Positions 1,167 through 58,444 are shown, counted from the first letter of the stretch. The stretch: 64,000 nucleotides of DNA from Escherichia coli 042 (GCF_000027125.1 NC_017626.1); one strand, 5' to 3'. A program made the numbers and translations. The notes: generated by a model not told the origin, from the sequence alone.

Positions 1167-1529
1167 TTGATTTTATTAGTAACAAGTATTTTTTATATTT
1201 TAATAATATATTTAAAGCAGATAATAAAAAACCCGCCTGAGCGGGTTTGAGATTGTGGTGCTTTTTGTGGGAGTCATCCACTTACGCACTTTGTTTTGCC
1301 ATGCCAGCAGTTAGCTTCTGCTGTAAAACTATTCATGCAGCAAACCTGCACTTCACCACAATGGTTAGCATACTTTTCCTGATTAAGATTTTGCCAAATA
1401 TGCTAGCCATTGTTTCATGTATTGGACCTCCTTACTTTTTATTAAAGAGATCCAATATTCACTACTCTGTCCGTATCTCTACTCAGGCATCAGCCTTCTT
1501 CGTTATCGTATACAGACGAGCGATGAATT

Positions 1530-1745
1530 TTAATCAGTAATGATGACATTTGCTGCTGCAGGACCTTTAGCACCACTCTCTATAGAGAAGGTAACCTTTT
1601 GACCTTCAAATAAGGTTCGATAATTATCATTCTGAATCGCAGAAAAATGCACAAACACATCTTTACTACCATCAACAGGAGAAATAAAGCCGAAACCTTT
1701 ATCAGCGTTAAACCATTTTACTAAACCAGTCATTTTATTTGACAT
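1530..1745 (-). CDS. cspB: Cold shock protein CspB
   Basis: Full-length CSD protein [21 protein letters not shown]...; recalled identity. Confidence 0.95.
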
Positions 1746-2045
1746 TCTACATTCCTTAACTTGAGCCTTTCGGCATAAATGGTTTGCATAACAGAAACGA
1801 CTTCGTACTTAATTGGAGAGACTCAAAGAAGGAATAAGTGAATAACACCTGAAATGAGAACTGCTTTAGTAAACTACTTCGTATATCGTCTGTTCTTCAA
1901 ACCGACGCAATCATTAACGCATAGTTGAACATATGAAGCAATGTTTATTTTAGACATCCAGCCATCTTCAACCCCATCAAAAAACTATAGCTTTCTTCAG
2001 GAACGTGTGTATAGTGCGCCAAGTTATCAGTATTAAGGAATTTTT

Positions 2046-8678: not shown

Positions 8679-9012
8679 GAAAAATCCCCCAGAGAATTGT
8701 CTGGGGACATTTTAGAATGGTTCAAAGGGGACATTACAGCTTGGTGTTAACAATAGCCTGCTTCTCCGTGCCTTTCGGCACGTAAGAGGCTAACCTACAT
8801 GTGTCTAGCATGAAATTGGCCTCAGATTAATGTTAAGCGTCTTGCAGGACGCGTAATGTTAACTGGGGCTTTTCTCTATCTGCCGTTGGTGTCCATGCCC
8901 GAGGCAGATAGCCTCAAGCACCCGCAGTCATTCTACTTAACTAAGATTTCCCCGCAAACCGTTTTTGTCCAGCACAGTAAATATCCAACTAAACCAATGG
9001 AGTTCGCTGTAT

Positions 9013-14373: not shown

Positions 14374-14431
14374 TTTCTGGTGACGTTTGGCGGTATCAGT
14401 TTTACTCCGTGACTGCTCTGCCGCCCTTTTT
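14374..14431 (+). ncRNA. dicF: DicF small RNA (ftsZ-inhibiting sRNA of dicB operon)
   Basis: TTTCTGGTGACGTTTGGCGGTATCAGTTTTACTCCGTGACTGCTCTGCCGCCCTTTTT matches recalled DicF incl. terminator hairpin plus U-tract; boundaries approximate. Confidence 0.7.
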
Positions 14432-39972: not shown

Positions 39973-40383
39973 TGTCCTTCTCCTGCAAGAGAATTATTTT
40001 AATTTTCGCTTAATTCAGCGAAACCAAAGTAAAGTGGTCAAGCCCCGCGCTTAGCGCAAGCTTTGGCAGAAGAAAGGACTAAAGCGCGTTGCGCCAGTGC
40101 TGCTCACCTACGAGCAAGATAGTGGATGAGGTACGAAGATGGGTAAATGTAGAAAATAACGTCCTGAACAAATTGTCCATAATATTACAATTATCCGCAG
40201 TGTTGCTTCTCGTCATCGCGGATGATAATTGTCCTCGGTAGTTGAACACGCCTGATTTGTATCATAGCTTAAGAATTAACTCAAAATATTTTCACTTCTT
40301 TACCTGAGCGGTTTGATTTTCGTTATGATGACGGAGCGAAAAAGACATTATTATTAGCAAAGGAAGAAAAAACGGGGACAAGC

Positions 40384-40530
40384 ATGGCAAAGCCGATCAT
40401 CACGCTCAATGGCCTAAAAATCGTCATTATGTTGGGAATGCTGGTCATTATTCTCTGCGGTATCCGTTTTGCCGCCGAGATCATCGTGCCGTTTATTCTC
40501 GCATTATTTATTGCTGTTATATATAACTAA
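40384..40530 (+). pseudogene. tqsA: tqsA 5' fragment (first 46 native codons, then island-derived I-Y-N-stop)
   Basis: [46 protein letters not shown] then frame leaves native sequence at 40521. Confidence 0.85.
40512..40520. repeat. attL core direct repeat TGCTGTTAT
   Basis: Identical 9-mer at 51546-51554; joining the flanks restores ...[18 protein letters not shown]... of TqsA. Confidence 0.65.
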
Positions 40531-40593
40531 TTTCACTTAACGCATTGATTTAATTAAATGATTTGCACTACAAAAAGTGCCATAAATCGCAAA

Positions 40594-40617
40594 ATGACTA
40601 CACCAGTGACTACACCG
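40594..40617. repeat. Arm-type tandem repeat ATGACTACACC-AGTGACTACACCG near attL
   Basis: Same 23-24 nt tandem motif present at 51395-51418 near attR in same orientation. Confidence 0.55.
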
Positions 40618-40934
40618 TTCGGTGCACTGTATGAAACAACGTGGAACAAATAGACACAAGAAATATACAGGCGGGTCATCTTTCCAGGGGGAAGCGCGCT
40701 AATTCATGAGGGGCGTTAATGTTGATATGGGGATCCCCATAACGGGGCTACCGGATTTTTTTTCCGGTTAACTGTTAATCAGGCTGGTGGGCTTTACCTG
40801 TTTTGTAGGAGTGGTCATTATGACCATTCAGACAATGACCTTAATCAGAACTTTTCGCTAAAAAATGACGTTGGTCACGTCGTCCGGAAAGCACAAAATC
40901 CCGTCAATTTTTAATTAACGGTTAAACCGTCTTT

Positions 40935-40980
40935 TGTCACGGCGTGTCACTGGTTGTCACTCTCCGTCACGGTATGTCGC
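40935..40980. repeat. Five GTCAC-type half-sites phased at exactly 10 bp
   Basis: tGTCACggcgtGTCACtggttGTCACtctccGTCACggtatGTCGC; GTCAC is the reverse complement of the GTGAC of the arm repeats. Confidence 0.5.
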
Positions 40981-40986
40981 TACTCG

Positions 40987-41268
40987 TTAACGCCGTAACC
41001 GCTCCGGCTTCTTCCAGTGGTACGTAATTTTCTCCGTTTCCCGATACAGTGCCACGCGGCGATTGTAGGCCAGCATTTCAAGAACGCGGATCCGTATGTT
41101 GCGCATATCCACATCATTAAGCTGGATACCATCACGGCGCATCACCTCAGCAACCACACGCGCGTAATTTTCGGCGGTCACGCTGTCCGGCTGCGTGGCC
41201 TGTTCGTCATGCTGCTGGCTGATTCCGGTAACGCGGCGGATTAATCCCAGTAGTTCGGCTTCTGTCAT
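40987..41268 (-). CDS. Hypothetical island protein (93 aa from MTEAELLGLIRR)
   Basis: ORF; start chosen downstream of cos copy 1 with GGGGG SD-like upstream; longer ORF-track N-terminus would read through cos. Confidence 0.35.
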   Translation of the reverse strand: MTEAELLGLIRRVTGISQQHDEQATQPDSVTAENYARVVAEVMRRDGIQLNDVDMRNIRIRVLEMLAYNRRVALYRETEKITYHWKKPERLRR

Positions 41269-41301
41269 TGTGCCCCCATCGCTCTGATAGTCTGGTGTCG
41301 T

Positions 41302-41366
41302 CGGGTCCTTCCTGGAATTATGGCCCGTTACGGGGCGGCGACCTCGCGCGTTTTCACTATTTATGA
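41302..41366 (+). other. Lambda-type cos site copy 1 (cosN GGGCGGCGACCT at 41333-41344), followed by ACCGGACAT repeats at 41383-41479
   Basis: cgggtccttcc...gttacgGGGCGGCGACCTcgcgcgttttcactatttatgaaaatttt closely matches recalled lambda cosQ-cosN-left-end sequence. Confidence 0.7.
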
Positions 41367-41547
41367 AAATTTTTCGGGATCCATGTCCGGTTTCTCTGCA
41401 AGTTAACCATATGAAAAATATAAAAACATGCTTTCCATGAACCGGACATGCGCAAAAAACAGACACTAAAACCGGACATCGAACCAGTTAACCGAAAGTG
41501 TGCACAAATCACATGCATTGCTGCGAGTGATTAACAAGTTATCGGCT

Positions 41548-41982
41548 TTACTGTTCTGTATCGGCTGATTGCTCCATGCTGGCACGGCGAACGCTTATGG
41601 CATGACGCCACCCAGCCAGAAAGCCAGCCATTTTATTTCGTGCCTTGCTCACATCTTCCGGTGAATAGCCGTAAATCTGCAAACCTTCATCAAATCGATG
41701 TTCTGTTTCTTCACTGGAGTACTCGTCACGCTCAGATGAAAGCAGCCTGGCAAACATAATTTTTTCCAGCGCACTGGTTTCTACGTGATATCTGATGGTC
41801 TCAAGACGGCTTTTACCTGAAGACCAAAGCAATGTATGCCCGATGTGATAACCGCCAGACTTTCCGCGATCCGCATTAAGATACGGCATCCCCTGTTTGG
41901 TCCATGCGCGAATAGTGGTTCTGTTAACCTTGAAATGTTCAGCTATTTCCTGCTGACTTACAAAACAAGCTTTATCAATCAT
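41548..41982 (-). CDS. Nu1-like small terminase / packaging-specificity protein (144 aa)
   Basis: N-terminus VSQQEIAEHFKVNRTTIRAWTKQGMPYL parallels lambda Nu1 VNKKQLADIFGASIRTIQNWQEQGMPVL winged-HTH. Confidence 0.65.
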   Translation of the reverse strand: MIDKACFVSQQEIAEHFKVNRTTIRAWTKQGMPYLNADRGKSGGYHIGHTLLWSSGKSRLETIRYHVETSALEKIMFARLLSSERDEYSSEETEHRFDEGLQIYGYSPEDVSKARNKMAGFLAGWRHAISVRRASMEQSADTEQ

Positions 41983-42049
41983 AATGTTACCTTAACTGCA
42001 TGGTTAAATATTAATCAAGTGGTGGTGGTGTCACCTTCACGGAAAAACG

Positions 42050-42115
42050 TCATAAATAGCGAAAACCCGCGAGGTCGCCGCCCCGTAACGGGCCATAATT
42101 CCAGGAAGGACCCGT
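42050..42115 (-). other. Lambda-type cos site copy 2, inverted relative to copy 1 (cosN complement at 42072-42083), 88 bp upstream of terS
   Basis: Reverse complement reads ...gttacgGGGCGGCGACCTcgcgggttttcgctatttatga; 63/65 identity to copy 1. Confidence 0.7.
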
Positions 42116-42137
42116 AAAAAAGCCGGATTTCTCCGGC
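42115..42137 (-). terminator. Rho-independent terminator ending capsid operon
   Basis: Minus strand GCCGGAgaaaTCCGGC followed by T-tract. Confidence 0.6.
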
Positions 42138-42143
42138 CTTGTC

Positions 42144-42557
42144 TCAGATGTTTTTCAGTATGCGATCGATGTCGCCGTCATCGCCCTGGTTTCTGCCATC
42201 GTATGCCATGCCAGCTGATACGGCTTGCGGGCTGTGCATGTCCATAAAGTTTTCAAAGGCTGCGGTAAGTTCCGGCGCAACCTTCGGACGTTCCTGCTCT
42301 ATGGTCATGCTAAGGATGCTTTTAGCCGTACCAACATCGATACAAGGCACGTTTGCCATTGCACGCAACAGCGGCTGATAGTCTTTATGCTCATGAAGCG
42401 CCATAATCGCATCAGCGCGCGGCTTGTCCTGCTCTTCCAGTTTGTTTAGTTGATGTACGGCCTCATAGGTTGATAAACCTCTGTCAGCCATTGCCCGCGC
42501 TTCGACTTTAAATTTACTCGCCAGCGGTAGCGTCATGATGCTTTCATTCGTTGCCAT
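42144..42557 (-). CDS. Hypothetical island protein (137 aa), last gene of capsid operon
   Basis: ORF co-directional and tightly spaced after D-like gene. Confidence 0.45.
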   Translation of the reverse strand: MATNESIMTLPLASKFKVEARAMADRGLSTYEAVHQLNKLEEQDKPRADAIMALHEHKDYQPLLRAMANVPCIDVGTAKSILSMTIEQERPKVAPELTAAFENFMDMHSPQAVSAGMAYDGRNQGDDGDIDRILKNI

Positions 42558-42569
42558 CGTTCCCCCTGC

Positions 42570-42905
42570 TTATCGGGCCAGCGGCTGAACGGATACGCCG
42601 GAACCCGCAAAGGCGGCGCATTTTTTCGCATCGGTGTCGACGCTCTCAGGCCAGTTAACGGCGGCAATATTGAATATCCCCGTCTTGTAACACTGTGCTG
42701 ATTTCTGCTTTGACGTGTCCACAGGGTACGAGGTCAGATAAACAGCCTTGCCAGATTCCTGACCATCCCACGGCTTAAACTCGCCATTGTCTGCCAGCAT
42801 CAGCGGGGTAAATTCCTGAATAACGCCAGCATCAGCGGCAAAATGTACCAACGTCGTGGATACCTGCTGACTGCCTGCAAATAACTCAATGTATGGAGTG
42901 TCCAT
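42570..42905 (-). CDS. Head decoration protein, lambda gpD homolog (111 aa)
   Basis: TPLMLADNGEFKPWDG...YKTGIFNIAAVNWPESVDTDAKKCAAFAGSGVSV parallels lambda D TPLMLDTSSRKLVAWDG...[35 protein letters not shown]. Confidence 0.8.
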   Translation of the reverse strand: MDTPYIELFAGSQQVSTTLVHFAADAGVIQEFTPLMLADNGEFKPWDGQESGKAVYLTSYPVDTSKQKSAQCYKTGIFNIAAVNWPESVDTDAKKCAAFAGSGVSVQPLAR

Positions 42906-42917
42906 AGAATCCCCCCG

Positions 42918-43973
42918 TTAACCAATTTTGACGGTAACAAATTTGCGAATATCTGCCGGTACCGGCTGCGGTGCACTGTGTGTCTGCACGTACTCAATCG
43001 CCGGATCGCCGTCCTCAATCCAGTTTTTCGGGTAAAACATGTTTTGTGTTGCGCCCGTTCTTACCGCTTCCTGATCCATTATCGCACCATAGGCCACCAG
43101 CCCTTTATTGTTGGTGTTACCCAGGACCAGCAAATCAGGCTCAAGGAAATATTTTTCGGTACCATCGCTGTCAGTGTATTTGCCGGAATAGACGATAAGG
43201 GCCAGATCACCAAGATAGCCTTTAAAGCTCACCACTTCGCCCAGGTTTTTACAGGCCAGTTCGGCGGCGGATTCTGAACCACGGGAAAGATCGTACAGCT
43301 CACGGAATTTTTTAAAGCTGCGTAATGTGCGCCATACCTCAGCGCCCATAATCATGACGTTTGCGGGGCAACCAGCCTGATCAGCATAAAGCTCGATGTC
43401 ATAGATTGGGTCGTGCATGTCTTTATCCTGCTCGGACCATTTTTTACCCTTGGCCTGCTCTATGATGCAGTTTTCCGGTATTTTCCAGTCGATTTCATAG
43501 CGTTCTATGCCTTCGCCCTCAATGATGTTTTTTCCGGTCGTTACCGCATTCACCGCCAGCCATTCCACGCGTGCCTTAATGGCGTTTATCTGGCGGCGCA
43601 TGTTGCCAGTAATCAGGCGCATACGGCGATAGGTAGGGTCGTTAAGCTGTGCCGGATCTTCTCCAGCCATGCGCATGATGGTTTTCGTTGGATCGATTTC
43701 GTGCTTTGGCTTCATGTAGCCAGGTTTGATTGTGCTGGTTTCGTACCCTTTATCGCGCTGAACCTGGCTACCCACCATAGGCGAACAAAACGCCGACATG
43801 GTGACTTCTTCAATGTCCAGGGTATCCAGCATGATGTTTTGCGTGCTGAATGTCGCCACGTTCGGGAAAAACAGCGTGGTAAACAGAGGGCTGAATTTAA
43901 AATCCGCAATATCCCCGCGATTCAGGTACATGAAAAGCTGGTTAGTGTTAAGTGCCGTTGCTTTGCCTGCCAT
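42918..43973 (-). CDS. Major capsid protein, lambda gpE homolog (351 aa)
   Basis: KPGYMKPKHEIDP, DPTYRRMRLITGNMR, VSFKGYLGDLALIVYSGKY, YPKNWIEDGDPA align along recalled lambda E. Confidence 0.85.
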   Translation of the reverse strand: MAGKATALNTNQLFMYLNRGDIADFKFSPLFTTLFFPNVATFSTQNIMLDTLDIEEVTMSAFCSPMVGSQVQRDKGYETSTIKPGYMKPKHEIDPTKTIMRMAGEDPAQLNDPTYRRMRLITGNMRRQINAIKARVEWLAVNAVTTGKNIIEGEGIERYEIDWKIPENCIIEQAKGKKWSEQDKDMHDPIYDIELYADQAGCPANVMIMGAEVWRTLRSFKKFRELYDLSRGSESAAELACKNLGEVVSFKGYLGDLALIVYSGKYTDSDGTEKYFLEPDLLVLGNTNNKGLVAYGAIMDQEAVRTGATQNMFYPKNWIEDGDPAIEYVQTHSAPQPVPADIRKFVTVKIG

Positions 43974-44179
43974 TATTCACCCCCATAATTTTTATGCATC
44001 CCAAGCGCCGCAAGTAAATAAGAGCGTACAAGTGAACCTATCGACGGCTCCGGCGTCATCAGCGGATCCAGTCCAGCCGCAACGCCAGCTTCATAGTTTT
44101 TTTTGTGGCGCTGCTTGAGCACCTCCACGATTTCGGGGCTTATGTACACCGAAACACCGCCTTTTTTCTCTTCAGCCAT
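43973..44179 (-). CDS. Small protein upstream of capsid gene, possible ribbon-helix-helix fold (68 aa)
   Basis: MAEEKKGGVSVYISPEIVEVLKQRHKK; GAGGA SD; stop overlaps capsid start. Confidence 0.35.
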   Translation of the reverse strand: MAEEKKGGVSVYISPEIVEVLKQRHKKNYEAGVAAGLDPLMTPEPSIGSLVRSYLLAALGMHKNYGGE

Positions 44180-44208
44180 AGTAAGAAATTCCTCTTCGAC
44201 TAAAAAAA

Positions 44209-44236
44209 TCATAACTGGATGTTTATCCAGTTATGA
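44209..44236. promoter_or_regulatory. Perfect 12-bp inverted repeat TCATAACTGGAT-gttt-ATCCAGTTATGA in capsid-operon promoter region
   Basis: Seen directly; 30 bp upstream of operon start; second palindrome ATTGCATtttATGCAAT at 44248-44264. Confidence 0.5.
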
Positions 44237-44388
44237 TTATAATCAGAATTGCATTTTATGCAATGATATTGAGTTATGTTGCAAATTATGAAATGATTAT
44301 CCCGATCACGAACGCCAGTGCATCCAAAAACCTCATATGCAAAAGCCCGATAAGAACCCTCTGACCTTATCGGGCTTTTTTTGGGCGC

Positions 44389-44410
44389 AAAAAAGCCGGA
44401 TTGCTCCGGC
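44389..44410 (-). terminator. Rho-independent terminator after 74-aa gene
   Basis: Same GCCGGA-loop-TCCGGC module plus T-tract; preceded by second hairpin 44345-44382. Confidence 0.55.
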
Positions 44411-44430
44411 TATGTGTGCTGTGTGCTGGC

Positions 44431-44655
44431 TCAGTCTCTGATCTCTTTCAGAAATTCTATCAATGCATCTATCTGTTCAGGATTTACCGCCAGCATTTCA
44501 CCGGATAGAGCACATCTCACAAAACCATGCTGATCCTTTTCAATCAGTGCGCCCGTCTCCAGGAATGCGCGGTAATCATTGATGCTCATCGTCTCCATGT
44601 TGTCAGCATGGTATTTATCACGCTGTTTTAATATCTCATCAAATTTCATCGGCAT
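44431..44655 (-). CDS. Hypothetical island protein (74 aa)
   Basis: ORF bracketed by terminators. Confidence 0.4.
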   Translation of the reverse strand: MPMKFDEILKQRDKYHADNMETMSINDYRAFLETGALIEKDQHGFVRCALSGEMLAVNPEQIDALIEFLKEIRD

Positions 44656-44751
44656 TGTTTTTTTCCTCTGTTGTGTCTGTTTGTTTCAGATAGTAACTAT
44701 GCCTGACCGTGACGAAAACCCGGTAATGCGCCATACCGTTTCAACTGGTGC

Positions 44752-44774
44752 AAAAAAAGCCGGATTTCTCCGGC
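44752..44774 (-). terminator. Rho-independent terminator after PerC-like gene
   Basis: GCCGGAgaaaTCCGGC plus T7 on minus strand. Confidence 0.6.
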
Positions 44775-44781
44775 TGTTTGA

Positions 44782-45054
44782 TTAGCTGTCCTGGTAATTG
44801 CGCCATATTTCATCACCAGCACCATCTATACCCATTTCGGCATAAGTGCGATCGACTGCCTTTTTCAGGTCTCCGAAATTATCCGGCGGCTCCGGTGCCC
44901 TCTGTGCCTTCCTTGAACATTCCAGCCGTCGCATCGTGATGTGATGCCGTTCCTTGTCTGTCTCCACCAGCTGCATGACTTCACCCCATCGCGCCGCCGC
45001 CCTCCGGTAAAAGCCTTTCGCCTCCAGTTCCTCCGCTATGCGGTCATGTACCAT
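44782..45054 (-). CDS. PerC/Pch-family transcriptional regulator (90 aa)
   Basis: AEELEAKGFYRRAAARWGEVM resembles recalled Pch/PerC signature (…LEAQGLWRRAAARW…); GAGGGGG SD before ATG. Confidence 0.55.
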   Translation of the reverse strand: MVHDRIAEELEAKGFYRRAAARWGEVMQLVETDKERHHITMRRLECSRKAQRAPEPPDNFGDLKKAVDRTYAEMGIDGAGDEIWRNYQDS

Positions 45055-45064
45055 CGTCACCCCC

Positions 45065-45475
45065 TCAGAACGAAATATCATCACCGTAAGGGTCATCGCC
45101 TCCCGCTGGTGGCTGATTACCCTGTGTGCCTGTGGTTTTGCGTCTGTTCCCGCCTGGACGTGCCGCGCGGGCACTGATTACGCTGTCTGCGATAACCTGC
45201 CAGCCCTGCCGCGTTTCTCCGTTCTGTCCGGTCCACTGGCTTACCTGCATCGTGCCGGATACGCTGGCAACATCGCCTTTTTGATGTTTAGCCAGGAAGT
45301 CGGCCTGTTTGCCAAATGCGATGACCGATAACCATAACGTCGCCTGTCCGTCCTGTGCCTGGCTGCATGGCAAAGATACCGCCATACGCGCCAGCGTCAT
45401 CGGTGTGCCCTTGCTGGTCTGTTTTACCTGCGGGTCGTCCACCAGCCGCCCGTAAGCGGCTATCTGTGCCGTCAT
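45065..45475 (-). CDS. ssb: Single-stranded DNA-binding protein (SSB)
   Basis: OB-fold region and Gly/Pro-rich tail ending DDPYGDDISF (cf. E. coli SSB C-terminal DDDIPF). Confidence 0.8.
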   Translation of the reverse strand: MTAQIAAYGRLVDDPQVKQTSKGTPMTLARMAVSLPCSQAQDGQATLWLSVIAFGKQADFLAKHQKGDVASVSGTMQVSQWTGQNGETRQGWQVIADSVISARAARPGGNRRKTTGTQGNQPPAGGDDPYGDDISF

Positions 45476-45723
45476 AATTCCACCTCTCCGGTTTTAACGT
45501 TGATGGTTGTTACCTGTTCCGCTTCGGCAATCTCCCGTTCTGTCAGCGTGGCAAAGTTTGCCGCCGCCGTGGTCATGAATGCGCTTATCAGGTCGGGATG
45601 TTCCTTCGCGTATCCTTCCCGCGTGTGGCGGTCTATCGTTCTGATTGCCACCTTTAAGGTGTGCTCAGTCATGTCTAACGCTTTATATTTTGGCTCTGTT
45701 CTGTCTCTGCGTTTTTGGGTCAT
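45472..45723 (-). CDS. Hypothetical small protein between ori and ssb
   Basis: ORF; start uncertain (45723 or 45672). Confidence 0.3.
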   Translation of the reverse strand: MTQKRRDRTEPKYKALDMTEHTLKVAIRTIDRHTREGYAKEHPDLISAFMTTAAANFATLTEREIAEAEQVTTINVKTGEVEL

Positions 45724-45734
45724 TTCTCGCAACC

Positions 45735-45926
45735 TCTCACTTTTTCGCCTCACTTTTTCAAGCGTCTCACTTCGTCGCAGTTGGGATTTTCGGTTTTTCT
45801 ATGTGTGTGTTTCATAAGTATTTTTTTACCCCTCACTTTTGAGGATGTATACAGGTCGAAAAGTGAGGGAGAGCGGGCTAATTTTGGCCCTCTTTCTATC
45901 CCCCTCGCTTTTGCTCCTCACTTTTA
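45735..45926. repeat. Iteron array (CTCACTTTT, at least 6 copies, both orientations) with AT-rich spacer: putative island replication origin
   Basis: Copies at 45735, 45748, 45766, 45832, 45858 (inverted), 45916; directly 3' of pri-rep gene. Confidence 0.55.
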
Positions 45927-47324
45927 TAGCGGCGCTACATCATCCCCATCGATACGAATAACCCCATCTTTTTCCAGCTTGTACAGCCAGCGCCGGAAGT
46001 TTTTCATTTCATACCCCAGCTTTTTCATGTCATCACGTAACAGCGGGATCGTGCACTTGTCGCCGTTCTGTGTGCGTGAACGGATGCACCCCCATAGCGC
46101 GGTATGGTTTTCCGTCTTGTTCCCTGCCTCCTCGATGCGCTCCAGTTCAACAGGAGGGCGCGGATCATCCACCACCACCAGCGACGTGATTAATTCACCG
46201 TCAGCGTCGGTAAAAAGCTCCACCACGCGTAAGTCATATGCGGCTTCTTTGAGTTCCTCCGCGTCCTTCATTTTGGTGCATGAGATAACCAGCGCTTCGC
46301 TTCCTGCGTCCTCCCTGCGTATCCGGTATTCAGCATCCAGCGAAGCACGAAATGCACTGGAACCGCGCGCGCCTTTCGTCTCATCCTTGCCGGAATGGTG
46401 AACCACCAGCACCGTGGCCCCTGTGCGTCGTTTCAGTTCGTCACAACCACGGATAAACGCCCCCATATCACGGGAATCATTTTCATCATTCCCACCAAAG
46501 CAACGCGCCAGCGTATCCAGAATAATCATGCGTACAGGTTTACCCGTTTCCCGCTCCACCTGACGGGCAGCGATAACCATTTCATCAACATCAAGCGGGG
46601 CAGCCGGAAAGATGGGGCGGTTTACCAGATACAGATTTTTCACCTGCTCATCGTGCACAACCTCCCAGGCTTTTACACGACGCGGAACACCTATACCGCC
46701 TTCACCAACCACATAGAGAACCGCACCATGTGCAACCCTGCGGCCTCCCCACTGGCGACCAGTGGCAACATGGCACGCCCACGATCCAGCAAGGAATGAT
46801 TTATAGGACCCGCTAGCCCCGTATATGCTGCATAGCGATACCGCCGGAATAATCCCCTTAACCACGTAATCCAGTTGCGTGTCGTATCCGGTAGATCCAA
46901 CGCTCATCGGTAGCGTGGTTTTTCGCTGGTGTTTTTTTTCTTCCGCCGGCTCTTTCCCGCGCACCCGTTCCAGGTATTCGCGCCAGTTCTCCCGCATATG
47001 GCTGTGCATCCCTTCGGGGTAATAATTCGCATCAGTTACACCCGCCGCCGCCAGCTTGTGCGCAATGGCATTAATATTTGATGGCCTGATGTGGCCTGCC
47101 TTGTACAGCCGGACACAATAGCGCCCCTCGTCGATGATTCTCAGGTCTGCCAGTTCATCCAGTTGATCATCAGCCAGCACAACGGGAGGCACATTATCGC
47201 CAGCCAGTCGCCCGTCCTGTTCCTGCCACTGTTTCGCATGTGCCCAGGCATCACTACCCGCAAAAATAATGACTTCGGTCATCTTGTCGTAAGGCTGTTT
47301 TTTTAAGTTCGGTGCGCTTTTCAT
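45924..47324 (-). CDS. Primase/replicase-type AAA ATPase (RepA/AAA_25-like, 466 aa)
   Basis: Walker A GASGSYKS, Walker B MIILDTLARCFGG, VVHHSGKDETKGARGSSAF sensor region. Confidence 0.8.
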   Translation of the reverse strand: MKSAPNLKKQPYDKMTEVIIFAGSDAWAHAKQWQEQDGRLAGDNVPPVVLADDQLDELADLRIIDEGRYCVRLYKAGHIRPSNINAIAHKLAAAGVTDANYYPEGMHSHMRENWREYLERVRGKEPAEEKKHQRKTTLPMSVGSTGYDTQLDYVVKGIIPAVSLCSIYGASGSYKSFLAGSWACHVATGRQWGGRRVAHGAVLYVVGEGGIGVPRRVKAWEVVHDEQVKNLYLVNRPIFPAAPLDVDEMVIAARQVERETGKPVRMIILDTLARCFGGNDENDSRDMGAFIRGCDELKRRTGATVLVVHHSGKDETKGARGSSAFRASLDAEYRIRREDAGSEALVISCTKMKDAEELKEAAYDLRVVELFTDADGELITSLVVVDDPRPPVELERIEEAGNKTENHTALWGCIRSRTQNGDKCTIPLLRDDMKKLGYEMKNFRRWLYKLEKDGVIRIDGDDVAPL

Positions 47325-47620
47325 TTCTTGCCCCTGAATCCGTTAACCATGGTTTTCAGCTTCTGGATGTTTGCCCGTGCCCTGGCGTTGCTGGTGGGCA
47401 CGTTATGCGGCGCGGTCTGTACCAGAGAAAAATCACGCCGGAACTGATAAACAGGCATCACGCAATCATATTCGTAACCTTCACGGCGGTAGGTTACGCG
47501 CCGTTCTTCCACGTCCTTAATCATTACCGTGCCGCCGTACTGGTCGCGGTAAATATCACCGCGCGTAAATTTAGGGTGAGTGTTGCCACTGGCAGTTAAG
47601 CCAGAATATTTAAGTTTCAT
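47321..47620 (-). CDS. Hypothetical island protein (99 aa)
   Basis: ORF in tight operon; stop overlaps pri-rep start. Confidence 0.45.
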   Translation of the reverse strand: MKLKYSGLTASGNTHPKFTRGDIYRDQYGGTVMIKDVEERRVTYRREGYEYDCVMPVYQFRRDFSLVQTAPHNVPTSNARARANIQKLKTMVNGFRGKK

Positions 47621-47625
47621 TATTT

Positions 47626-47859
47626 TTATTCTCCGGTGTGCTGTTCTTTATATCTGTCGTGCAATAGATCTATTTCTTGCAGTTCCATTATTACAGGCTC
47701 AAGAAGCGTTATTAATGCTGTGGCAATTCTTGATTTTTGTTTGTCGCGTTCATTGTCGCCAAGTGTTTCAAGCCATATGCGCAATATTTCCATCATGTTT
47801 TCACTGTGAGAAAGTGCAAGAAATGCGCGGTCTATTGTTTGGTGGTAAATATCACGCAT
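47626..47859 (-). CDS. Hypothetical island protein (77 aa)
   Basis: ORF in operon. Confidence 0.4.
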   Translation of the reverse strand: MRDIYHQTIDRAFLALSHSENMMEILRIWLETLGDNERDKQKSRIATALITLLEPVIMELQEIDLLHDRYKEQHTGE

Positions 47860-48319
47860 GGCTTACATCCTCAGGAAATTTTCTTCTATAACGCGCCTCT
47901 GCCACATATTCCGCATAATCGGCGGCGATATTCAGTACATCAAGCCCCGTTGATTTATATTCTCTCGTGGAAAGTAAGAAAAAAGCCGCTCTAATAAGTT
48001 CTGGCATTGACGAAAGCGCATCAGCCGCATCATCAGGAACGCCGGAAAATTCCTGTTTCAGGGAATTAAAACGATCATCACGCATAACCCCCCCCCCATT
48101 TTCACAATCAGCAATCAGGATAGCTTTGGCCTCATTCAGCGCCGTATCAGCACTAAATTGCATGACAGCCAGTGAGTGAGGAACGAAAGCACCGGCATAT
48201 TCTGTTTCGCTGGTGGCGTGCTTATGTGCCCTGTCCGCGATAACAGAAATATCAATCAGCGCGTGCATCAGCGTTTTGATGGCTTCGGCGGCTGCGTCCG
48301 GTGTGGTTTTATTGTGCAT
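47852..48319 (-). CDS. Hypothetical island protein (155 aa)
   Basis: ORF in operon. Confidence 0.45.
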   Translation of the reverse strand: MHNKTTPDAAAEAIKTLMHALIDISVIADRAHKHATSETEYAGAFVPHSLAVMQFSADTALNEAKAILIADCENGGGVMRDDRFNSLKQEFSGVPDDAADALSSMPELIRAAFFLLSTREYKSTGLDVLNIAADYAEYVAEARYRRKFPEDVSHA

Positions 48320-48521
48320 AAAGCATCCCCTGAATATTCGTGTTAATCATTCCGGCACGTTTTGTGATTTCCTGTAATGATTCCCTTGTGGCGACAATTG
48401 CTTCATCTGGTAAGTGGTAATTACACACCACGCGACCTTTATCCACATTGACCAGTAGCTGCCCTGTGAATTTCTCACGAAACTGAATGCGGTTAAGGTC
48501 AGTAAGTGACAGATTAATCAT
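48309..48521 (-). CDS. Hypothetical island protein (70 aa)
   Basis: AGGAGG immediately upstream of ATG at 48521. Confidence 0.45.
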   Translation of the reverse strand: MINLSLTDLNRIQFREKFTGQLLVNVDKGRVVCNYHLPDEAIVATRESLQEITKRAGMINTNIQGMLYAQ

Positions 48522-48711
48522 GGCGCACCTCCTGACGAATACGGGCGGCAAATACAGCAACACAACCGGACGGGCAACGGTTACGCGCTTCGCGTTCCGT
48601 CCAGGCGGTTACGTGGATGATTTGAGATTCTCCGGCACTCAGTGCCAGAAAACGCCACACAAAGGCCGTTTGTGTGTGTACAAGGTGTGGTATATGATTT
48701 ACAGCAACCAT
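48514..48711 (-). CDS. Hypothetical island protein (65 aa), first gene of leftward operon
   Basis: AGGAG SD upstream of ATG at 48711. Confidence 0.4.
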   Translation of the reverse strand: MVAVNHIPHLVHTQTAFVWRFLALSAGESQIIHVTAWTEREARNRCPSGCVAVFAARIRQEVRHD

Positions 48712-48804
48712 AACGGCTCCTAGTTTACGTTGTTGGTTAGAAGCCCTGCGAGTGGTAACGACACTTGCGGGGCTTTGTCTTTTCATCGATTACCTTGATA
48801 AAGG

Positions 48805-48884
48805 TGTCAGCCACTATATTAGTAACGGGTGTCAGCCACGTCAATAGTGTTTTTCCGTTTTCTTGTGTGTATACTGTCAGCCAC
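48805..48884. promoter_or_regulatory. Three direct repeats TGTCAGCCAC in divergent promoter region, with TATACT -10-like element
   Basis: Repeats at 48805-48814, 48830-48839, 48875-48884. Confidence 0.5.
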
Positions 48885-48905
48885 CTAATAACGAGGAAAT
48901 CAGAT

Positions 48906-49085
48906 ATGGCAACAAAAGCAGTTAATGCAAAATCCAAAAAGCTTGAGGCTCGAGTACCACACGCAATAGCTGATGCTGTAGAAAATTTAAAGGAAGATGG
49001 CGAAAGTACAGGGCAATTTATCGTTTCGGCACTTGAAGGCGAGATCAAACGCCGCCAGCGCCGCAAGGCCAAAGAATCAGAATAA
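48906..49085 (+). CDS. Ribbon-helix-helix (CopG/Arc-like) putative repressor (59 aa)
   Basis: KKLEARVPHAIADAVENLKEDGESTGQFIVSALEGEIKR fits beta-strand/helix/helix RHH pattern; divergent from main operon. Confidence 0.5.
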   Translation: MATKAVNAKSKKLEARVPHAIADAVENLKEDGESTGQFIVSALEGEIKRRQRRKAKESE

Positions 49086-49127
49086 TCACTATCAGCGCCG
49101 TGGTGTGAGGTATTACGGCGCATTGCT

Positions 49128-49316
49128 ATGCAGGACAACACAATGACCGATAAAGAATTGACCAAAACATTATCACCGGCACGGAAAAGACGGCGCAGAA
49201 AGATAGAGCATGAATCAGAAAGATTCGCACCATGTGCTTTTGCCCTTGAGCAATTCCTTAAAGAGTACAGGGAAAAGCGCTCATTGCAGGTATGGCAACG
49301 AACTGAACCAGACTGA
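49128..49316 (+). CDS. Hypothetical small basic protein (62 aa or shorter from MTDKEL)
   Basis: ORF followed by hairpin plus T7 at ~49410-49440. Confidence 0.3.
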   Translation: MQDNTMTDKELTKTLSPARKRRRRKIEHESERFAPCAFALEQFLKEYREKRSLQVWQRTEPD

Positions 49317-49585
49317 TTGCATTGCCCACCAGCCTGATAGCGGCTATCATCCCCGTGCTTATGTTTGGGATCACACACACAAACGGCGCAGCGGGTTATC
49401 TGTTCAGAAAGGCGGCTCCATTTCGGGGCCGCTTTTTTTATACCTGAAAAACCCCAATTTTGTTGTTTTTCAGTTTCACCAGGGCGAACGAATCCCCGCC
49501 CACGTTCTGGCGTATATTCAATCTTCATGGTTATAGCTCTGTGTTCAGATGATTGATGTGTGGCGGCTGCGTGCCGCCAGCGTGA

Positions 49586-49774
49586 TTAATGAACTGCCTT
49601 GCAGCTATCCTTCCAGGCCAGAACCTCGGATAAAGACCAGCCAACGGAACGACCGCCAAGTTTACGACGTGATGGGAATTGTCCGGCCTTTTCCAGGCGG
49701 TAGCGACACGTACGGCTAAGGCCGGTTAGTTTTTCGCATTCTTTTTCACGTATAAACCGATCAGTGCTTAACAC
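49586..49774 (-). CDS. alpA: AlpA-family excision/transcription regulator
   Basis: 62 aa MLSTDRFIREKECEKLTGLSRTCRYRLEKAGQFPSRRKLGGRSVGWSLSEVLAW. Confidence 0.8.
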   Translation of the reverse strand: MLSTDRFIREKECEKLTGLSRTCRYRLEKAGQFPSRRKLGGRSVGWSLSEVLAWKDSCKAVH

Positions 49775-50048
49775 TATTGCCCCCCCTTTCGTTTCTTAAA
49801 GAGTCATCAGGTGTCTTATTGTGTCGTATTGTTCCCGCTAGAGTGATGAATGGCAAATATTGAGGATGTATGATTTACAGAAAATGAAACAGTAAGAATA
49901 AAATCTTTTAAATTCATGTTAATACAAAGGCATAAAATATTGTTTCATGCCTTTTTTCTCGCTCTTTAAAGAGTGATTCGCTAGTGTATAAAAAACCAGT
50001 GACACATTAAAAATCAGCCACTTATAAATCTGTATGCTTTTTCGCCTC

Positions 50049-50123
50049 TTGTTCGTGGTTGTTCCACATTGTTGCTCATTGTTGCACGTTGTATCTGTTC
50101 GCATATACAGTATGCGCATACTG
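50049..50123. promoter_or_regulatory. Five TTGTTSC-like repeats at ~10-bp spacing plus 16-bp perfect palindrome CAGTATGCGCATACTG (50108-50123) in int-alpA intergenic region
   Basis: Seen directly. Confidence 0.4.
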
Positions 50124-50140
50124 AAAAAACACGAAAAAAA

Positions 50141-51370
50141 TTATTTTCTTCTGGCTACTGGTAGCGTGGTTACGTTTTCATGTGTTCCCGCCAGTATCCC
50201 TAACCGCTCCGTCCACATATCCAGCGCATTGCGTTTAGCATCCAGATAACGGGAATGATTATAAACTCGCTGCATTCCTGGCATCTGGTGGCCTGTAAGC
50301 TGCTCCACGACATGCGGATCAACGCCTAAATCGTTCAGCATGGTTGTAAAGGTGCGCCGGATGTCATGCAGTGACCAGTGAGGATGATTAAGCCTCCTGT
50401 GCGCTAATCTTCCATACTGCGATACGCTGGCCTCCTGTTTCACTTCCCCCAGCAATAAGCCCGTGTGCCTGTTCTGCTCCACCAGCTGCGTGACGAACGG
50501 CAGGATCGCTTCCGGTATGGGCCGGAATATTGCGACCTTCGTTTTGCTGTGCTCCTTCGGAACGGTCCATAGCATTTCCGTAAAATCCCACTCCCCGATC
50601 TCCGATAACCTCAGTTCTACCGTTCTGGCTCCGAAGACAATCAGGAGGCGGATTAACGCGACGTAGTAAGGGGAGAATATTTTTTTGTCCAGTGCCTGCA
50701 ATAATTCGCCAAGTTCTTTGTTACTTAAGACACGTTCGCTTATATCCGGTTTTTTCCCAACGTCCGCCACGTTCAGATCGTCCAGAACGTTGCTGATTGC
50801 ATAGCGCCGCCTACGGCAGAACTTAAGCGCCTGTTTGCACGCCTGTAGCACGAATCCGGCAGTAACAGGCGTTCGCTTTGCCACCTGGTCAAAACAGGCC
50901 AGCCAGTGCCGTAGCTCGCATTTATCCAGCGGCATAGCACCAATCTGCTGTATTACGTGATTATTAAGTCGCCTTTTCAGGGCGATATAATCCACGCGGT
51001 TTTCCTTTACGTAATACTCAAGCCAGTAGGTGAGCGCATCGCCAACCGTTACCGGCTTTAACGCTTCCTGTACGGTGTAATTAAGCTCATGACGTGGATT
51101 TTTCCCCTCTGCCAGCCATGCGCGACACTGGGCGGCTTTTTCCCTGGCTGATTTCAGGCTCAGATCAGGATAACTTCCCAGCTTAATGCGTTCGGGTCGT
51201 GTCTCCCTTCCCGTTCCGGCCCTGTATGTGAAATACCAGGTCAATTTCCCTGATGTTAAATATTTCACGCTCAGGTTTCCGCCATCACTATAAAACGTGT
51301 TTTTCTCCGCTGGCTTACCATGAAGTTTCCTTAGCAAGGTATCGCTCAGTTTGTTCATTGCTCTGCTCAC
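50141..51370 (-). CDS. int: P4-type tyrosine integrase (start GTG 51370 or ATG 51358)
   Basis: 409-aa ORF; catalytic region ...HDIRRTFTTMLNDLGVDPHVVEQLTGHQMPGMQRVYNHSRY; adjacent to attR. Confidence 0.9.
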   Translation of the reverse strand: MSRAMNKLSDTLLRKLHGKPAEKNTFYSDGGNLSVKYLTSGKLTWYFTYRAGTGRETRPERIKLGSYPDLSLKSAREKAAQCRAWLAEGKNPRHELNYTVQEALKPVTVGDALTYWLEYYVKENRVDYIALKRRLNNHVIQQIGAMPLDKCELRHWLACFDQVAKRTPVTAGFVLQACKQALKFCRRRRYAISNVLDDLNVADVGKKPDISERVLSNKELGELLQALDKKIFSPYYVALIRLLIVFGARTVELRLSEIGEWDFTEMLWTVPKEHSKTKVAIFRPIPEAILPFVTQLVEQNRHTGLLLGEVKQEASVSQYGRLAHRRLNHPHWSLHDIRRTFTTMLNDLGVDPHVVEQLTGHQMPGMQRVYNHSRYLDAKRNALDMWTERLGILAGTHENVTTLPVARRK

Positions 51371-51394
51371 GTTTTACCCCCTCTTTACGAAAAA

Positions 51395-51418
51395 GTGACT
51401 ACACCAGTGACTACACCG
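51395..51418. repeat. Arm-type tandem repeat GTGACTACACC-AGTGACTACACCG near attR
   Basis: Matches 40594-40617. Confidence 0.55.
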
Positions 51419-51545
51419 ATCGTTGCACAAAGGGCTACAACGTGAAACAAGCTGGAACAAGGAAAATCACAAATCTGTTGATAATCAAAAACATAATGCA
51501 CAGCCTGAAACATTATGAAACAGCAAAAAACACCAAATGATAAAA

Positions 51546-51554
51546 TGCTGTTAT
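51546..51554. repeat. attR core direct repeat TGCTGTTAT
   Basis: Identical to 40512-40520. Confidence 0.65.
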
Positions 51555-51567
51555 TCTTAACCCGCTG

Positions 51568-52452
51568 GTGCAACACATGGTCCGCTGGCGAGTGCCGCGT
51601 GTACTGGCGGTGTCGATTTTGATGACCATCATCGTGATGGCGATGGTGTTGCTGTTAGCTTATCTGGGTTCCGCGCTCAACGAGTTGACGCGGACGTTAC
51701 CGCAATATCGCAACTCTATTATGACGCCGCTGCAAGCGATTGAACCGTTGTTGCAACGCGTAGGGATTGATGTCTCAGTTGACCAACTGGCGCATTACAT
51801 TGATCCGAACGCGGCGATGACGTTGCTCACCAACTTATTGACGCAGTTATCTAATGCCATGTCATCAATATTTTTATTGCTGCTGACGGTGCTGTTTATG
51901 CTGCTCGAAGTGCCACAATTGCCCGGAAAATTTCAGCAAATGATGGCGCGTCCGGTTGAAGGGATGGCGGCGATTCAGCGTGCGATTGACAGTGTTTCTC
52001 ATTATCTGGTGCTGAAAACAGCCATCAGCATCATCACCGGCCTGGTCGCCTGGGCGATGCTCGCCGCACTCGATGTTCGCTTCGCTTTTGTCTGGGGATT
52101 GCTGGCCTTTGCGCTTAATTACATCCCTAATATTGGTTCAGTTCTCGCAGCAATTCCCCCTATCGCTCAGGTACTGGTGTTTAATGGCTTCTACGAAGCG
52201 TTGTTGGTGCTGGCGGGATATCTGCTGATTAATCTGGTCTTCGGCAATATTCTGGAGCCGCGCATCATGGGACGTGGGCTGGGGCTTTCGACATTGGTGG
52301 TATTTTTGTCGTTGATTTTTTGGGGATGGTTGTTAGGACCGGTGGGTATGCTGCTTTCCGTGCCGTTGACAATTATTGTCAAAATTGCGCTTGAACAAAC
52401 AGCGGGAGGTCAAAGCATCGCCGTTCTGTTAAGCGATCTCAATAAAGAGTGA
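51568..52452 (+). pseudogene. tqsA: tqsA 3' fragment (lacks first ~55 codons; internal GTG/ATG present)
   Basis: [26 protein letters not shown]... continues TqsA frame to native stop. Confidence 0.85.
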
Positions 52453-57061: not shown

Positions 57062-58444
57062 ATGGAAAAGAAACTGGGACTGAGCGCACTCACCGCGCTG
57101 GTATTAAGCTCAATGCTGGGCGCGGGTGTTTTCAGTCTGCCGCAAAATATGGCGGCAGTTGCCAGCCCGGCAGCACTGCTCATCGGCTGGGGCATTACTG
57201 GCGCTGGCATTTTATTGCTGGCCTTTGCCATGCTGATCCTCACGCGCATTCGTCCCGAACTTGACGGCGGTATCTTTACCTATGCCCGCGAAGGGTTTGG
57301 CGAGCTAATCGGCTTTTGTTCCGCATGGGGATACTGGCTGTGCGCAGTCATCGCCAACGTCTCCTATCTGGTGATCGTTTTTTCCGCGTTAAGCTTTTTT
57401 ACGGACACGCCGGAATTGCGCCTGTTTGGCGATGGTAATACCTGGCAATCGATCCTCGGTGCATCGGCTTTATTGTGGATTGTTCACTTTTTGATCCTGC
57501 GCGGAGTGCAAACCGCTGCCAGCATTAACCTGGTGGCGACACTGGCAAAATTGTTGCCGCTGGGTCTGTTTGTTGTGCTGGCGATGATGATGTTCAAACT
57601 GGATACCTTCAAGCTCGACTTCACCGGACTTGCACTTGGCGTACCCGTTTGGGAACAGGTGAAAAACACCATGCTGATCACCCTGTGGGTTTTCATTGGT
57701 GTGGAAGGTGCCGTGGTTGTTTCTGCGCGTGCGCGTAATAAACGTGATGTTGGCAAAGCGACACTGCTGGCGGTTCTCTCCGCTCTGGGCGTTTACTTGC
57801 TGGTAACGCTGCTTTCGCTGGGCGTGGTGGCACGTCCTGAACTGGCTGAAATTCGTAACCCGTCAATGGCCGGTCTGATGGTGGAAATGATGGGACCGTG
57901 GGGCGAAATCATCATCGCTGCCGGTTTGATCGTTTCCGTTTGCGGCGCGTACTTAAGCTGGACCATCATGGCGGCAGAAGTTCCGTTCCTGGCTGCCACT
58001 CATAAAGCATTCCCACGCATTTTTGCGCGCCAGAACGCACAAGCTGCGCCATCCGCCTCACTGTGGTTGACCAACATCTGCGTGCAAATTTGTCTGGTAC
58101 TCATCTGGCTGACCGGTTCCGATTACAACACGTTGCTGACCATCGCCTCAGAAATGATTCTGGTGCCCTATTTCCTGGTCGGCGCGTTCTTGCTGAAAAT
58201 CGCAACCCGTCCACTGCATAAAGCGGTAGGTGTCGGTGCCTGCATTTATGGCTTATGGTTATTGTACGCCTCTGGTCCAATGCACTTGCTGTTATCCGTT
58301 GTTCTGTATGCGCCGGGGCTGCTGGTTTTCCTGTATGCGCGTAAAACGCATATACATGATAACGTACTGAACCGTCAGGAAATGGTGCTAATTGGCATGC
58401 TGTTAATTGCCTCAGTTCCGGCGACCTGGATGCTGGTGGGATAA
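57062..58444 (+). CDS. ydgI: Putative arginine:ornithine antiporter YdgI (ArcD-like)
   Basis: 460-aa APC-family transporter. Confidence 0.9.
   Translation: MEKKLGLSALTALVLSSMLGAGVFSLPQNMAAVASPAALLIGWGITGAGILLLAFAMLILTRIRPELDGGIFTYAREGFGELIGFCSAWGYWLCAVIANVSYLVIVFSALSFFTDTPELRLFGDGNTWQSILGASALLWIVHFLILRGVQTAASINLVATLAKLLPLGLFVVLAMMMFKLDTFKLDFTGLALGVPVWEQVKNTMLITLWVFIGVEGAVVVSARARNKRDVGKATLLAVLSALGVYLLVTLLSLGVVARPELAEIRNPSMAGLMVEMMGPWGEIIIAAGLIVSVCGAYLSWTIMAAEVPFLAATHKAFPRIFARQNAQAAPSASLWLTNICVQICLVLIWLTGSDYNTLLTIASEMILVPYFLVGAFLLKIATRPLHKAVGVGACIYGLWLLYASGPMHLLLSVVLYAPGLLVFLYARKTHIHDNVLNRQEMVLIGMLLIASVPATWMLVG

Follow-up and report, generated by a model that had tools for sequence, protein, structure and literature searches.

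Attachment sites of a phage-inducible chromosomal island in tqsA of Escherichia coli 042, and a doubled arm motif kept in relatives at other target sites

The island and its target gene

We analysed 64,000 nucleotides of DNA from Escherichia coli 042 (GCF_000027125.1, NC_017626.1; hereafter the window, with positions counted from its first base), in which the gene tqsA is interrupted by an island that has the features of a classical Gram-negative phage-inducible chromosomal island (PICI). In E. coli, tqsA is the gene for the exporter of autoinducer 2 (AI-2). The island splits the gene at codons 43-46 without restoring it. On translation, the 5' fragment (40384-40530, plus strand) consists of 46 native codons followed by an island-encoded Tyr-Asn-stop, and the 3' fragment (51555-52452, plus strand) extends from codon 47 to the stop codon and is preceded by in-frame stops in the island. 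A first-pass annotation of this DNA, generated by a model, had proposed integration into a protein-coding gene, and the cut through the coding sequence, which disrupts tqsA, agrees with that proposal.

The assignment of the island body (40521-51545, minus strand) is based on the map of open reading frames (ORFs), on matches to PHROG families and on the annotation of near-identical islands by the Prokaryotic Genome Annotation Pipeline (PGAP). The ORF map and the PHROG matches identified an integrase of PHROG 1, a RepA-type helicase-primase, an SSB, a major head protein similar to lambda E, a decoration protein similar to lambda D, a scaffold- or protease-related ORF and a TerS-like ORF, to which the PGAP annotation adds Icd-like, DUF4222 and PerC-family genes. 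Neither the ORF map nor the PHROG matches revealed tail, lysis, portal or large-terminase genes in the island. With int next to alpA, a replication module with iterons, a size in the range of about 8-15 kb and unidirectional transcription, the island has the layout described for classical Gram-negative PICIs (Fillol-Salom et al. 2018, PMC6092414). It also has packaging signals of its own in the form of two lambda-type cos sequences, one exact (42060-42083, minus strand) and one with 2 mismatches (41333-41356, plus strand). We also considered the capsid-forming PICI EcCIEDL933 as an identity for the element and rejected it, since the island is without genes for the terminase large subunit, the portal and the protease.

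A PICI named EcCI042 has been listed for E. coli 042 (FN554766.1, 1832521-1843554, i.e. 11,034 bp) with tqsA as its target and ATAACAGCA as its core, and a second, EcCIK1516, is also located in tqsA (Fillol-Salom et al. 2018, Table S1). The element in the window has the same target and the same length, and ATAACAGCA is the reverse complement of TGCTGTTAT, the 9-bp repeat at the island ends. The table entry also names perC as the accessory gene, and the islands that are near-identical to ours contain a PerC-family gene. By site, core and size, the element is thus very probably EcCI042. The published entry gives the core and contains nothing on arm repeats, the overlap, core-type sites or the effect on tqsA. 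The site and the 9-bp core are therefore already published, as very probably is the element itself; what is new here is small, namely a model of attP at the level of single bases and the question of how general its doubled-motif scaffold is.

The island is a mosaic. Most of its cargo matches, at 97.9% identity, the island at phoQ/roxA in strains of serotypes O55:H7 and O157:H7, a site that also holds EcCICFT073 and EcCIRM12579 (Fillol-Salom et al. 2018, Table S1), and its exact combination was present in none of 5426 complete E. coli genomes. EcPF5 has identical tqsA junctions, with PGAP labelling the 5' stub 'pheromone autoinducer 2 transporter, missing C-terminus' and the 3' part 'tqsA, missing N-terminus', but carries a primase-type replication module whereas a RepA-type helicase is found here. 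The same junctions with a different replication module indicate independent insertions and hence repeated use of the site. The element is an intact PICI in a known hotspot, correctly delimited and probably mobile.

Cores and junctions

The 9-bp sequence TGCTGTTAT is located at 40512-40520 (attL, plus strand) and again at 51546-51554 (attR, plus strand), where the first-pass annotation had placed a duplicated core, and the identity extends to neither side of it. The distance from core to core, which is one repeat unit including one copy of the core, is 11,034 bp. The count of this 9-mer is by itself weak evidence: the window has 3 copies where 0.49 would be expected, and shuffled sequences reached 3 copies in 3 of 100 cases. 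It is the position of the repeat and of the arm motifs described below, at the exact tqsA junctions, that sets them beyond chance. The third copy (58287-58295) lies outside the island, has no associated arm motifs and was taken as a chance occurrence.

When positions 40380-40520 are joined to 51555-51700, the product is 100% identical over 287 nt to the intact tqsA of many E. coli, and a crossover in silico rebuilds an ORF of 344 amino acids identical to that of intact tqsA. A survey of tqsA occupancy in other genomes had been suggested in the first-pass annotation. The tqsA site was uninterrupted in 5169 of 5426 complete E. coli genomes, while probes for the attL and attR junctions were found whole in 245 and 246 genomes, such that about 4.5% of the genomes carry a split tqsA. 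Matches of the attR probe to genomes with an empty site begin exactly at 51546, and the empty attB that had been predicted, GCTGTTATTCTTAACCCG, is the actual tqsA sequence.

A circular metagenomic contig in IMG/VR (IMGVR_UViG_3300045988_152974, L273) is 11,098 bp long and has an exact terminal overlap of 119 bp, which yields a circle of 10,979 bp. It spans the predicted attP junction contiguously with 99.5% identity. The contig begins at the first base of the core, a start point that may reflect branching of the de Bruijn graph at the position from which attL and attP have their sequence in common. As a circular copy in a collection enriched for viral contigs, L273 is indirect evidence on the helper-dependent induction, replication and high-frequency transfer that are expected of Gram-negative PICIs. 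The 9 bp thus occur once in the empty attB and once in attP, which is the signature of conservative site-specific recombination rather than of a duplication. Taken together, the reconstructed attB with its 100% match, the shared junctions, the circular attP contig and the published core support the earlier claim that the 9-bp repeat is the core of the attachment site.

A doubled motif in both arms

Both arms of the attachment site, which we refer to as P on the side of int and P' at the far end of the island, contain the doubled motif RTGACTACACC-AGTGACTACACCG in the same orientation. In the P' arm it consists of ATGACTACACC and GTGACTACACC (40594-40616), and in the P arm of two copies of GTGACTACACC (51395-51417). 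As putative arm-type pairs for the integrase, with flanking bases included, these are AATGACTACACC-AGTGACTACACC-G at 40593-40617 and AGTGACTACACC-AGTGACTACACC-G at 51394-51418, both on the plus strand, the latter starting 24 bp upstream of the int start codon. Units of the motif with at most one mismatch matched 5 times in the window, against 0.53 expected, and the octamer ACTACACC occurs at just four places when both strands of the 64 kb are scanned, all of them on the plus strand and in the arms. A gap of 76 bp separates the end of the attL core from the first ACTACACC, and one of 128 bp separates the last ACTACACC from the start of the attR core, close to the ~75 and ~130 bp noted in the first pass; measured from the centre of the overlap, the half-site pairs lie at about 131 bp in the P arm and 78 bp in the P' arm. 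The motifs are part of a direct repeat of 76 nt with 76% identity (40591-40666 and 51392-51467).

Relatives at other target sites

A search for distant relatives at the DNA level, using int and the P arm, identified relatives in 1245 genomes. We read representatives at phoQ/roxA (L001), yifB (L003), smrA/abgR (L004), clpS/cspD (L005 and L006) and thiM/rcnR (L127), the last of which is a capsid-forming PICI. The representatives at these five other sites each contain the doubled motif exactly twice and co-oriented, with one copy 24-35 bp upstream of the start of int and the other at the far end. Identity blocks of 9-14 bp were found at the six sites (TGCTGTTAT, AAATATGTCC, ATCCGCTATT, TCACGATATT, ATAACTATCAT, ATACGGGTATTTCT), all of which match cores in the published table as reverse complements (Fillol-Salom et al. 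2018, Table S1), and across the six sites the motif is separated from the identity block by 69-78 bp in one arm and 125-129 bp in the other. This layout is kept in relatives whose integrases are down to about 70% identical at the nucleotide level. Absence of the arm repeats from related elements had been named in the first-pass annotation as a finding that would speak against it; they are present at all six target sites.

Spacing is also kept where the intervening sequence is not. Another 37 attL ends in IMG/VR, of which 19 are in tqsA (with 16 distinct spacers), 15 in phoQ and 3 in yifB, hold the spacing within 1 bp while their spacers differ by up to 18% in sequence. In the comparison of the tqsA and phoQ islands the similarity ends at 51546 and resumes at 40539, which indicates that a cassette of about 27 bp, holding the overlap and the C' region, differs between them. 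We considered whether a GTG or TTA prefix of the motif co-varies with the 18 positions at which the N-termini of the tqsA and phoQ integrases differ, but this was rejected because the yifB island has one prefix in each arm; only ACTACACC(G) is invariant.

A similar geometry has been described for helper-embedded PICIs, a sister clade, in which the doubled motif tgTGTATTGCa is found twice, co-oriented, at 81 +/- 2 and 132 +/- 2 bp from the centre of attP; it was called unique to these elements and reported as absent from other PICIs (Tommasini, Mageeney & Williams 2023, PMC10111431). The corresponding distances in the window, from the centre of the overlap to the nearest edge of the motif, are 78 and 131 bp, and two helper-embedded PICIs that we re-measured in IMG/VR have gaps of 74/130 and 69/131 bp. 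The integrases of these elements are about 40% identical to ours, and the motifs read in the orientation of int are related (GGTGTAGTCAC versus TGTGTATTGCA). However, the helper-embedded PICIs target late genes of prophages and have the motif core TGTATTGC, whereas the island in the window is inserted in chromosomal tqsA and its motif, GTGACTACACC, has the core ACTACACC. Our element works like the helper-embedded PICIs but is not a member of that family, and as judged from the att sequences the geometry is clearly not unique to them.

Scans outside this group gave no further loci. A scan of genome contigs for the integrase peptide yielded 30 pattern matches, none of which was confirmed, and no cross-species loci. 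A scan of the same type of contigs for the motif gave at least 120 matches in unrelated taxa, similar to a rough estimate of the number expected by chance (16 specified bases in about 300 Gb) and hence uninformative. About 25 motif matches in IMG/VR were coding repeats (D-Y-T-x-D-Y-T) in high-GC phages and were discarded as unrelated.

Two observations concern insertions at other flanks. One element in IMG/VR (IMGVR_UViG_2671180417_000010, L300/L301) has the same P arm and doubled motifs but different flanks; its ends share only AATGCTG and differ in the overlap, with TGCTGAC in one and TGCTGTT in the other, which looks like a secondary-site insertion with unresolved heterology in the overlap. 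Another locus (L249) also has a left flank other than tqsA.

Overlap, core-type sites and accessory repeats

All attP types reconstructed from the six target sites have the same order, with (G/T)A(T/G)AAA(A/T) followed by 7 bp and by an inverted copy. These 7 bp are the sole positions common to all six identity blocks, and because they are common to the six att types we infer that TGCTGTT is the overlap in tqsA (40512-40518 in attL, 51546-51552 in attR) and that strand exchange takes place within it. The putative core-type site C is GATAAAA (51539-51545, plus strand); the corresponding sequence before the overlap is (G/T)ATAAA(A/T) in the five closest att types and GAGAAAA in L127. The putative C' site, ATATATA (40519-40525, plus strand), was identified from an alignment of attP at seven loci and is an imperfect inverted GATAAAA, with TTTTATC or ATTTATA at its place in other types. 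The phoQ/roxA type has a perfect inverted repeat (GATAAAA/TTTTATC), and that of the tqsA type is weaker.

In the P' arm there is a match to the consensus for integration host factor (IHF), AATCAATGCGTTA (WATCAANNNNTTR), at 40538-40550 on the minus strand; it is perfect, though a consensus match only, and its ATTGA block is kept in most relatives. A second type of repeat follows about 20 bp after each doubled motif, namely a pair of (G/C/A)AACAA units with a period of 10 bp in the P' arm (40634-40649, plus strand), for which AlpA is a candidate binder, and a pair of (G/A)AACAA units of the same period in the P arm (51445-51460, plus strand). Four (G/C)AACAA units, again with a 10-bp period, are located between the int stop codon and alpA (50049-50084, minus strand); this array is inverted relative to the pairs in the arms and is kept in L001, L003 and L004. 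The pattern of the (G/C)AACAA pair has 7 matches in the window, 5 of which fall in the two arms and the int-alpA array. The P arm contains yet another pair near the core, TGAAACA-TTA-TGAAACA (51506-51522, plus strand), with CGAACAC twice as the equivalent in L005 and L006 and CGAACA/CGAACC in L127.

Integrase and AlpA

The int gene (50141-51370, minus strand) encodes a tyrosine integrase of 409 amino acids that matches PF13356 (Arm-DNA-bind_3) at residues 8-95, PF22022 at residues 131-200 and PF00589 at residues 214-375. Residues 8-95 also match PDB 3JTZ, the N-terminal domain of a CP4-like integrase, and such N-terminal domains are the only solved structural relatives. By its domain matches, the protein is a three-domain recombinase of the P4/CP4 type with an arm-DNA-binding N-terminus. 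It is 92% identical to the integrase of the phoQ/roxA island; substitutions are mostly N-terminal and central, and residues 301-409 are identical.

The alpA gene (49586-49774, minus strand) encodes a regulator of the AlpA family with 62 amino acids, the putative directionality factor, which is 100% identical to AlpA of the phoQ/roxA island L001. An ORF at 49919-50119 was tried as alpA and rejected, as its translation shows it to be spurious. With alpA at 49586-49774, the repeat array at 50049-50084 is intergenic and not coding. Both int and alpA are intact in the window.

To relate the doubled motif to its binding protein, we compared the two candidate proteins between element types. L005 and L127 have AlpA proteins that are 95% identical and integrase N-termini that are 62% identical, and their motifs differ (ACTACACC versus ACCACAC). 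The window and L005, on the other hand, have AlpA proteins of 68% identity and integrase N-termini of 76% identity, and share the motif. The doubled motif thus follows the N-terminus of the integrase and not AlpA, which favours its being an arm-type binding site for the integrase. The first-pass reading of the tandem motif as such a site is strengthened by this and by its conservation, twice per element, and the sites are here called putative arm-type sites.

A model for integration and excision

The window contains the parts expected of heterobivalent attachment sites, with a three-domain integrase, a shared identity block that includes an overlap, and inverted core-type sites. We consider it likely, with good confidence, that these are the attachment sites of a PICI in codons 43-46 of tqsA which recombine by conservative site-specific recombination according to the standard model for heterobivalent integrases. 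In this model, GATAAAA and ATATATA would flank the overlap in attP and serve as sites for the core-binding and catalytic domains. The N-terminal domains of the integrase tetramer would occupy the four ACTACACC half-sites, two in each arm, and bends of the IHF type would fold the arms back onto the core. AlpA, induced by a helper phage, would act both as an activator and as the directionality factor, perhaps through the (G/C)AACAA arrays after each doubled motif and upstream of alpA; these may be AlpA sites that couple excision to the control of alpA. As a consequence of the insertion point, tqsA is inactivated by integration and restored by precise excision.

The integrase probably also represses its own gene, because the doubled motif on the int side sits between any possible int promoter and the start codon. 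Autoregulation of this kind is plausible by analogy with KplE1 (CPS-53), where the int promoter region overlaps an att arm with sites for the integrase IntS and the directionality factor TorI and where autoregulation is negative (Panis et al. 2010, PMC2951348). KplE1 and lambda Int likewise have heterobivalent integrases with arm-type and core-type sites, as proposed for the island, but KplE1 differs in the lineage of its integrase, in having TorI where the PICI has AlpA, in its target, the tRNA gene argW, and in the arrangement of its sites.

Several points weigh against this interpretation. The contig L273 could stem from a packaged concatemer or from a tandem insertion and not from a free circle. 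In the tqsA type, C' resembles an inverted copy only poorly, matching GATAAAA at 4 of 7 positions and the TATAAAT of the relatives at 5 of 7. Only one match to the IHF consensus was found in the att arms, that in P', and none in the P arm. A promoter scan gave no sigma-70-like site in the P arm, and autoregulation is without direct sequence support. The comparison of AlpA with the integrase covers three types of elements only, and the arm-type role of the doubled motif is read from conservation and co-variation.

The explanation that competes most directly is that the doubled ACTACACC is bound by AlpA or by another DNA-binding protein, with the arm sites of the integrase located elsewhere, for example in the (G/C)AACAA arrays. 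Each arm does contain two different conserved repeat arrays, and the sequence does not force the assignment of proteins to arrays; moreover, the binder of the equivalent motif was left open for the helper-embedded PICIs (Tommasini et al. 2023). Binding by AlpA is difficult to reconcile, however, with a motif that differs between L005 and L127 at 95% AlpA identity and is the same in the window and L005 at 68%. It also conflicts with the distribution of the two arrays, since ACTACACC is absent upstream of alpA and from the rest of the island, where an activator would be expected to act, while the (G/C)AACAA array does occur upstream of alpA. Finally, sites for directionality factors are usually confined to one arm, as in lambda, whereas the doubled motif is in both. 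We therefore regard this explanation as rather unlikely.

Considerably less probable still is that the 76-nt similarity of the arms is a historical duplication without a present role and that the core alone matters for recombination. Beyond the motif the two copies are only 76% identical, as such a relic might be, but the motif, its copy number, its orientation and its distance from the core are kept at six target sites and in the clade of 40% identity while the spacers diverge, and the integrase has retained its arm-binding domain. That the 9-bp repeat is no recombination core at all, but a target-site duplication of the kind left by transposition or a chance repeat beside an immobile remnant, seems hardly credible. 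A repeated 9-mer at such a distance is statistically unremarkable by itself. Yet the empty site and the circular attP contig each contain a single copy of these 9 bp, about 245 genomes share identical junctions while differing in cargo, both int and alpA are intact, and the core has been published.

Generality of the scaffold and published cores

A further question is how far the arrangement extends. We lean slightly towards the view that a doubled motif with a 12-bp period, at about 130 bp (int side) and about 76 bp (far side) from the crossover, serves as a general scaffold for the whole clade of integrases of Gram-negative PICIs and the P4 type and is not peculiar to helper-embedded PICIs. 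If so, the motif would form a composite module with the 10-bp (G/C)AACAA array, an array that is also found upstream of alpA and through which excision may be linked to the control of that gene. New target sites would then be acquired by exchange of just the 7-bp overlap and the C' segment.

It would also follow that several printed PICI 'att cores', those of EcCIDI14 and probably of the yejM group, are really arm repeats. The core printed for EcCIDI14 is CGGTGTAGTTAATGGTGTAGTTAATT (Fillol-Salom et al. 2018, Table S1), which is the reverse complement of the doubled ACTACACC motif (40593-40617 and 51394-51418 in the window). The cores printed for the yejM-group PICIs and for NmCIFF6 in the same table are tandem repeats, too. 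Judging from these sequences, some published 'att cores' are probably arm repeats, with the true crossover sites of those islands unmapped. For the yejM group this is taken solely from the printed table; the yejM-type repeat had no exact match in viral contigs and, as a 30-nt query, none in E. coli genomes. These comparisons correct the view, given in print, that only helper-embedded PICIs have the doubled motif, and they flag probable mis-assigned cores in a much-used table of PICIs. The attP model for six target sites, consisting of the overlap, the core-type sites, two arm-type pairs and the second array, could be used for the design of integration vectors and for calling the boundaries of PICIs.

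Disruption of tqsA

Islands in tqsA have been listed previously. Eco33.11.tqsA, Eco557.15.tqsA and Eco282.16.tqsA were reported to disrupt the UPF0118 domain without restoration, and tqsA was given as a candidate for 'regulated gene integrity' in a list that also includes the sister island Eco160.11.phoQ (Mageeney et al. 2020, TIGER, PMC7192596). The gene is also among those found to be disrupted by prophage-like insertions (Bobay et al. 2013, PMC3603311). Both studies identify the same target as here, as catalogue entries without the anatomy of the att sites or an experimental test of regulated excision. Two properties expected under regulated gene integrity, interruption of a conserved coding region and, in silico, precise excision that rebuilds the gene, are found at this locus, and the domain-disruption test of TIGER was positive for the tqsA islands. 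If excision is regulated, the export of AI-2 would be tied to the induction of the satellite and its helper phage.

Further features of the island and its surroundings

An inverted repeat of 78 nt, 91% complementary (41302-41379 and 42037-42114), brackets the TerS-like ORF, and the cos sequence GGGCGGCGACCTCGCGGGTTTTCG is found twice within it in opposite orientations, once exact and once with 2 mismatches. Three iteron-like repeats, TTTTNCNCCTCACTTTT, are spaced by 83-85 bp at 45741-45925, just 3' of the gene for the RepA-type helicase and at the position where replication origins of PICIs are reported. The hairpin AAAAAAGCCGGATT(T/G)CTCCGGC is present in three copies in the island (42113-42142, 44386-44415 and 44750-44779), which look like intrinsic terminators on the minus strand between gene modules.

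To the left of the island, matches to Rfam at gathering level were obtained for the cspA thermoregulator (1514-1906, minus strand), the sok antitoxin RNA (8752-8923, minus strand) and DicF (14375-14426, plus strand). From what is known of E. coli K-12, we take these to mark a cryptic prophage region of the Qin type.

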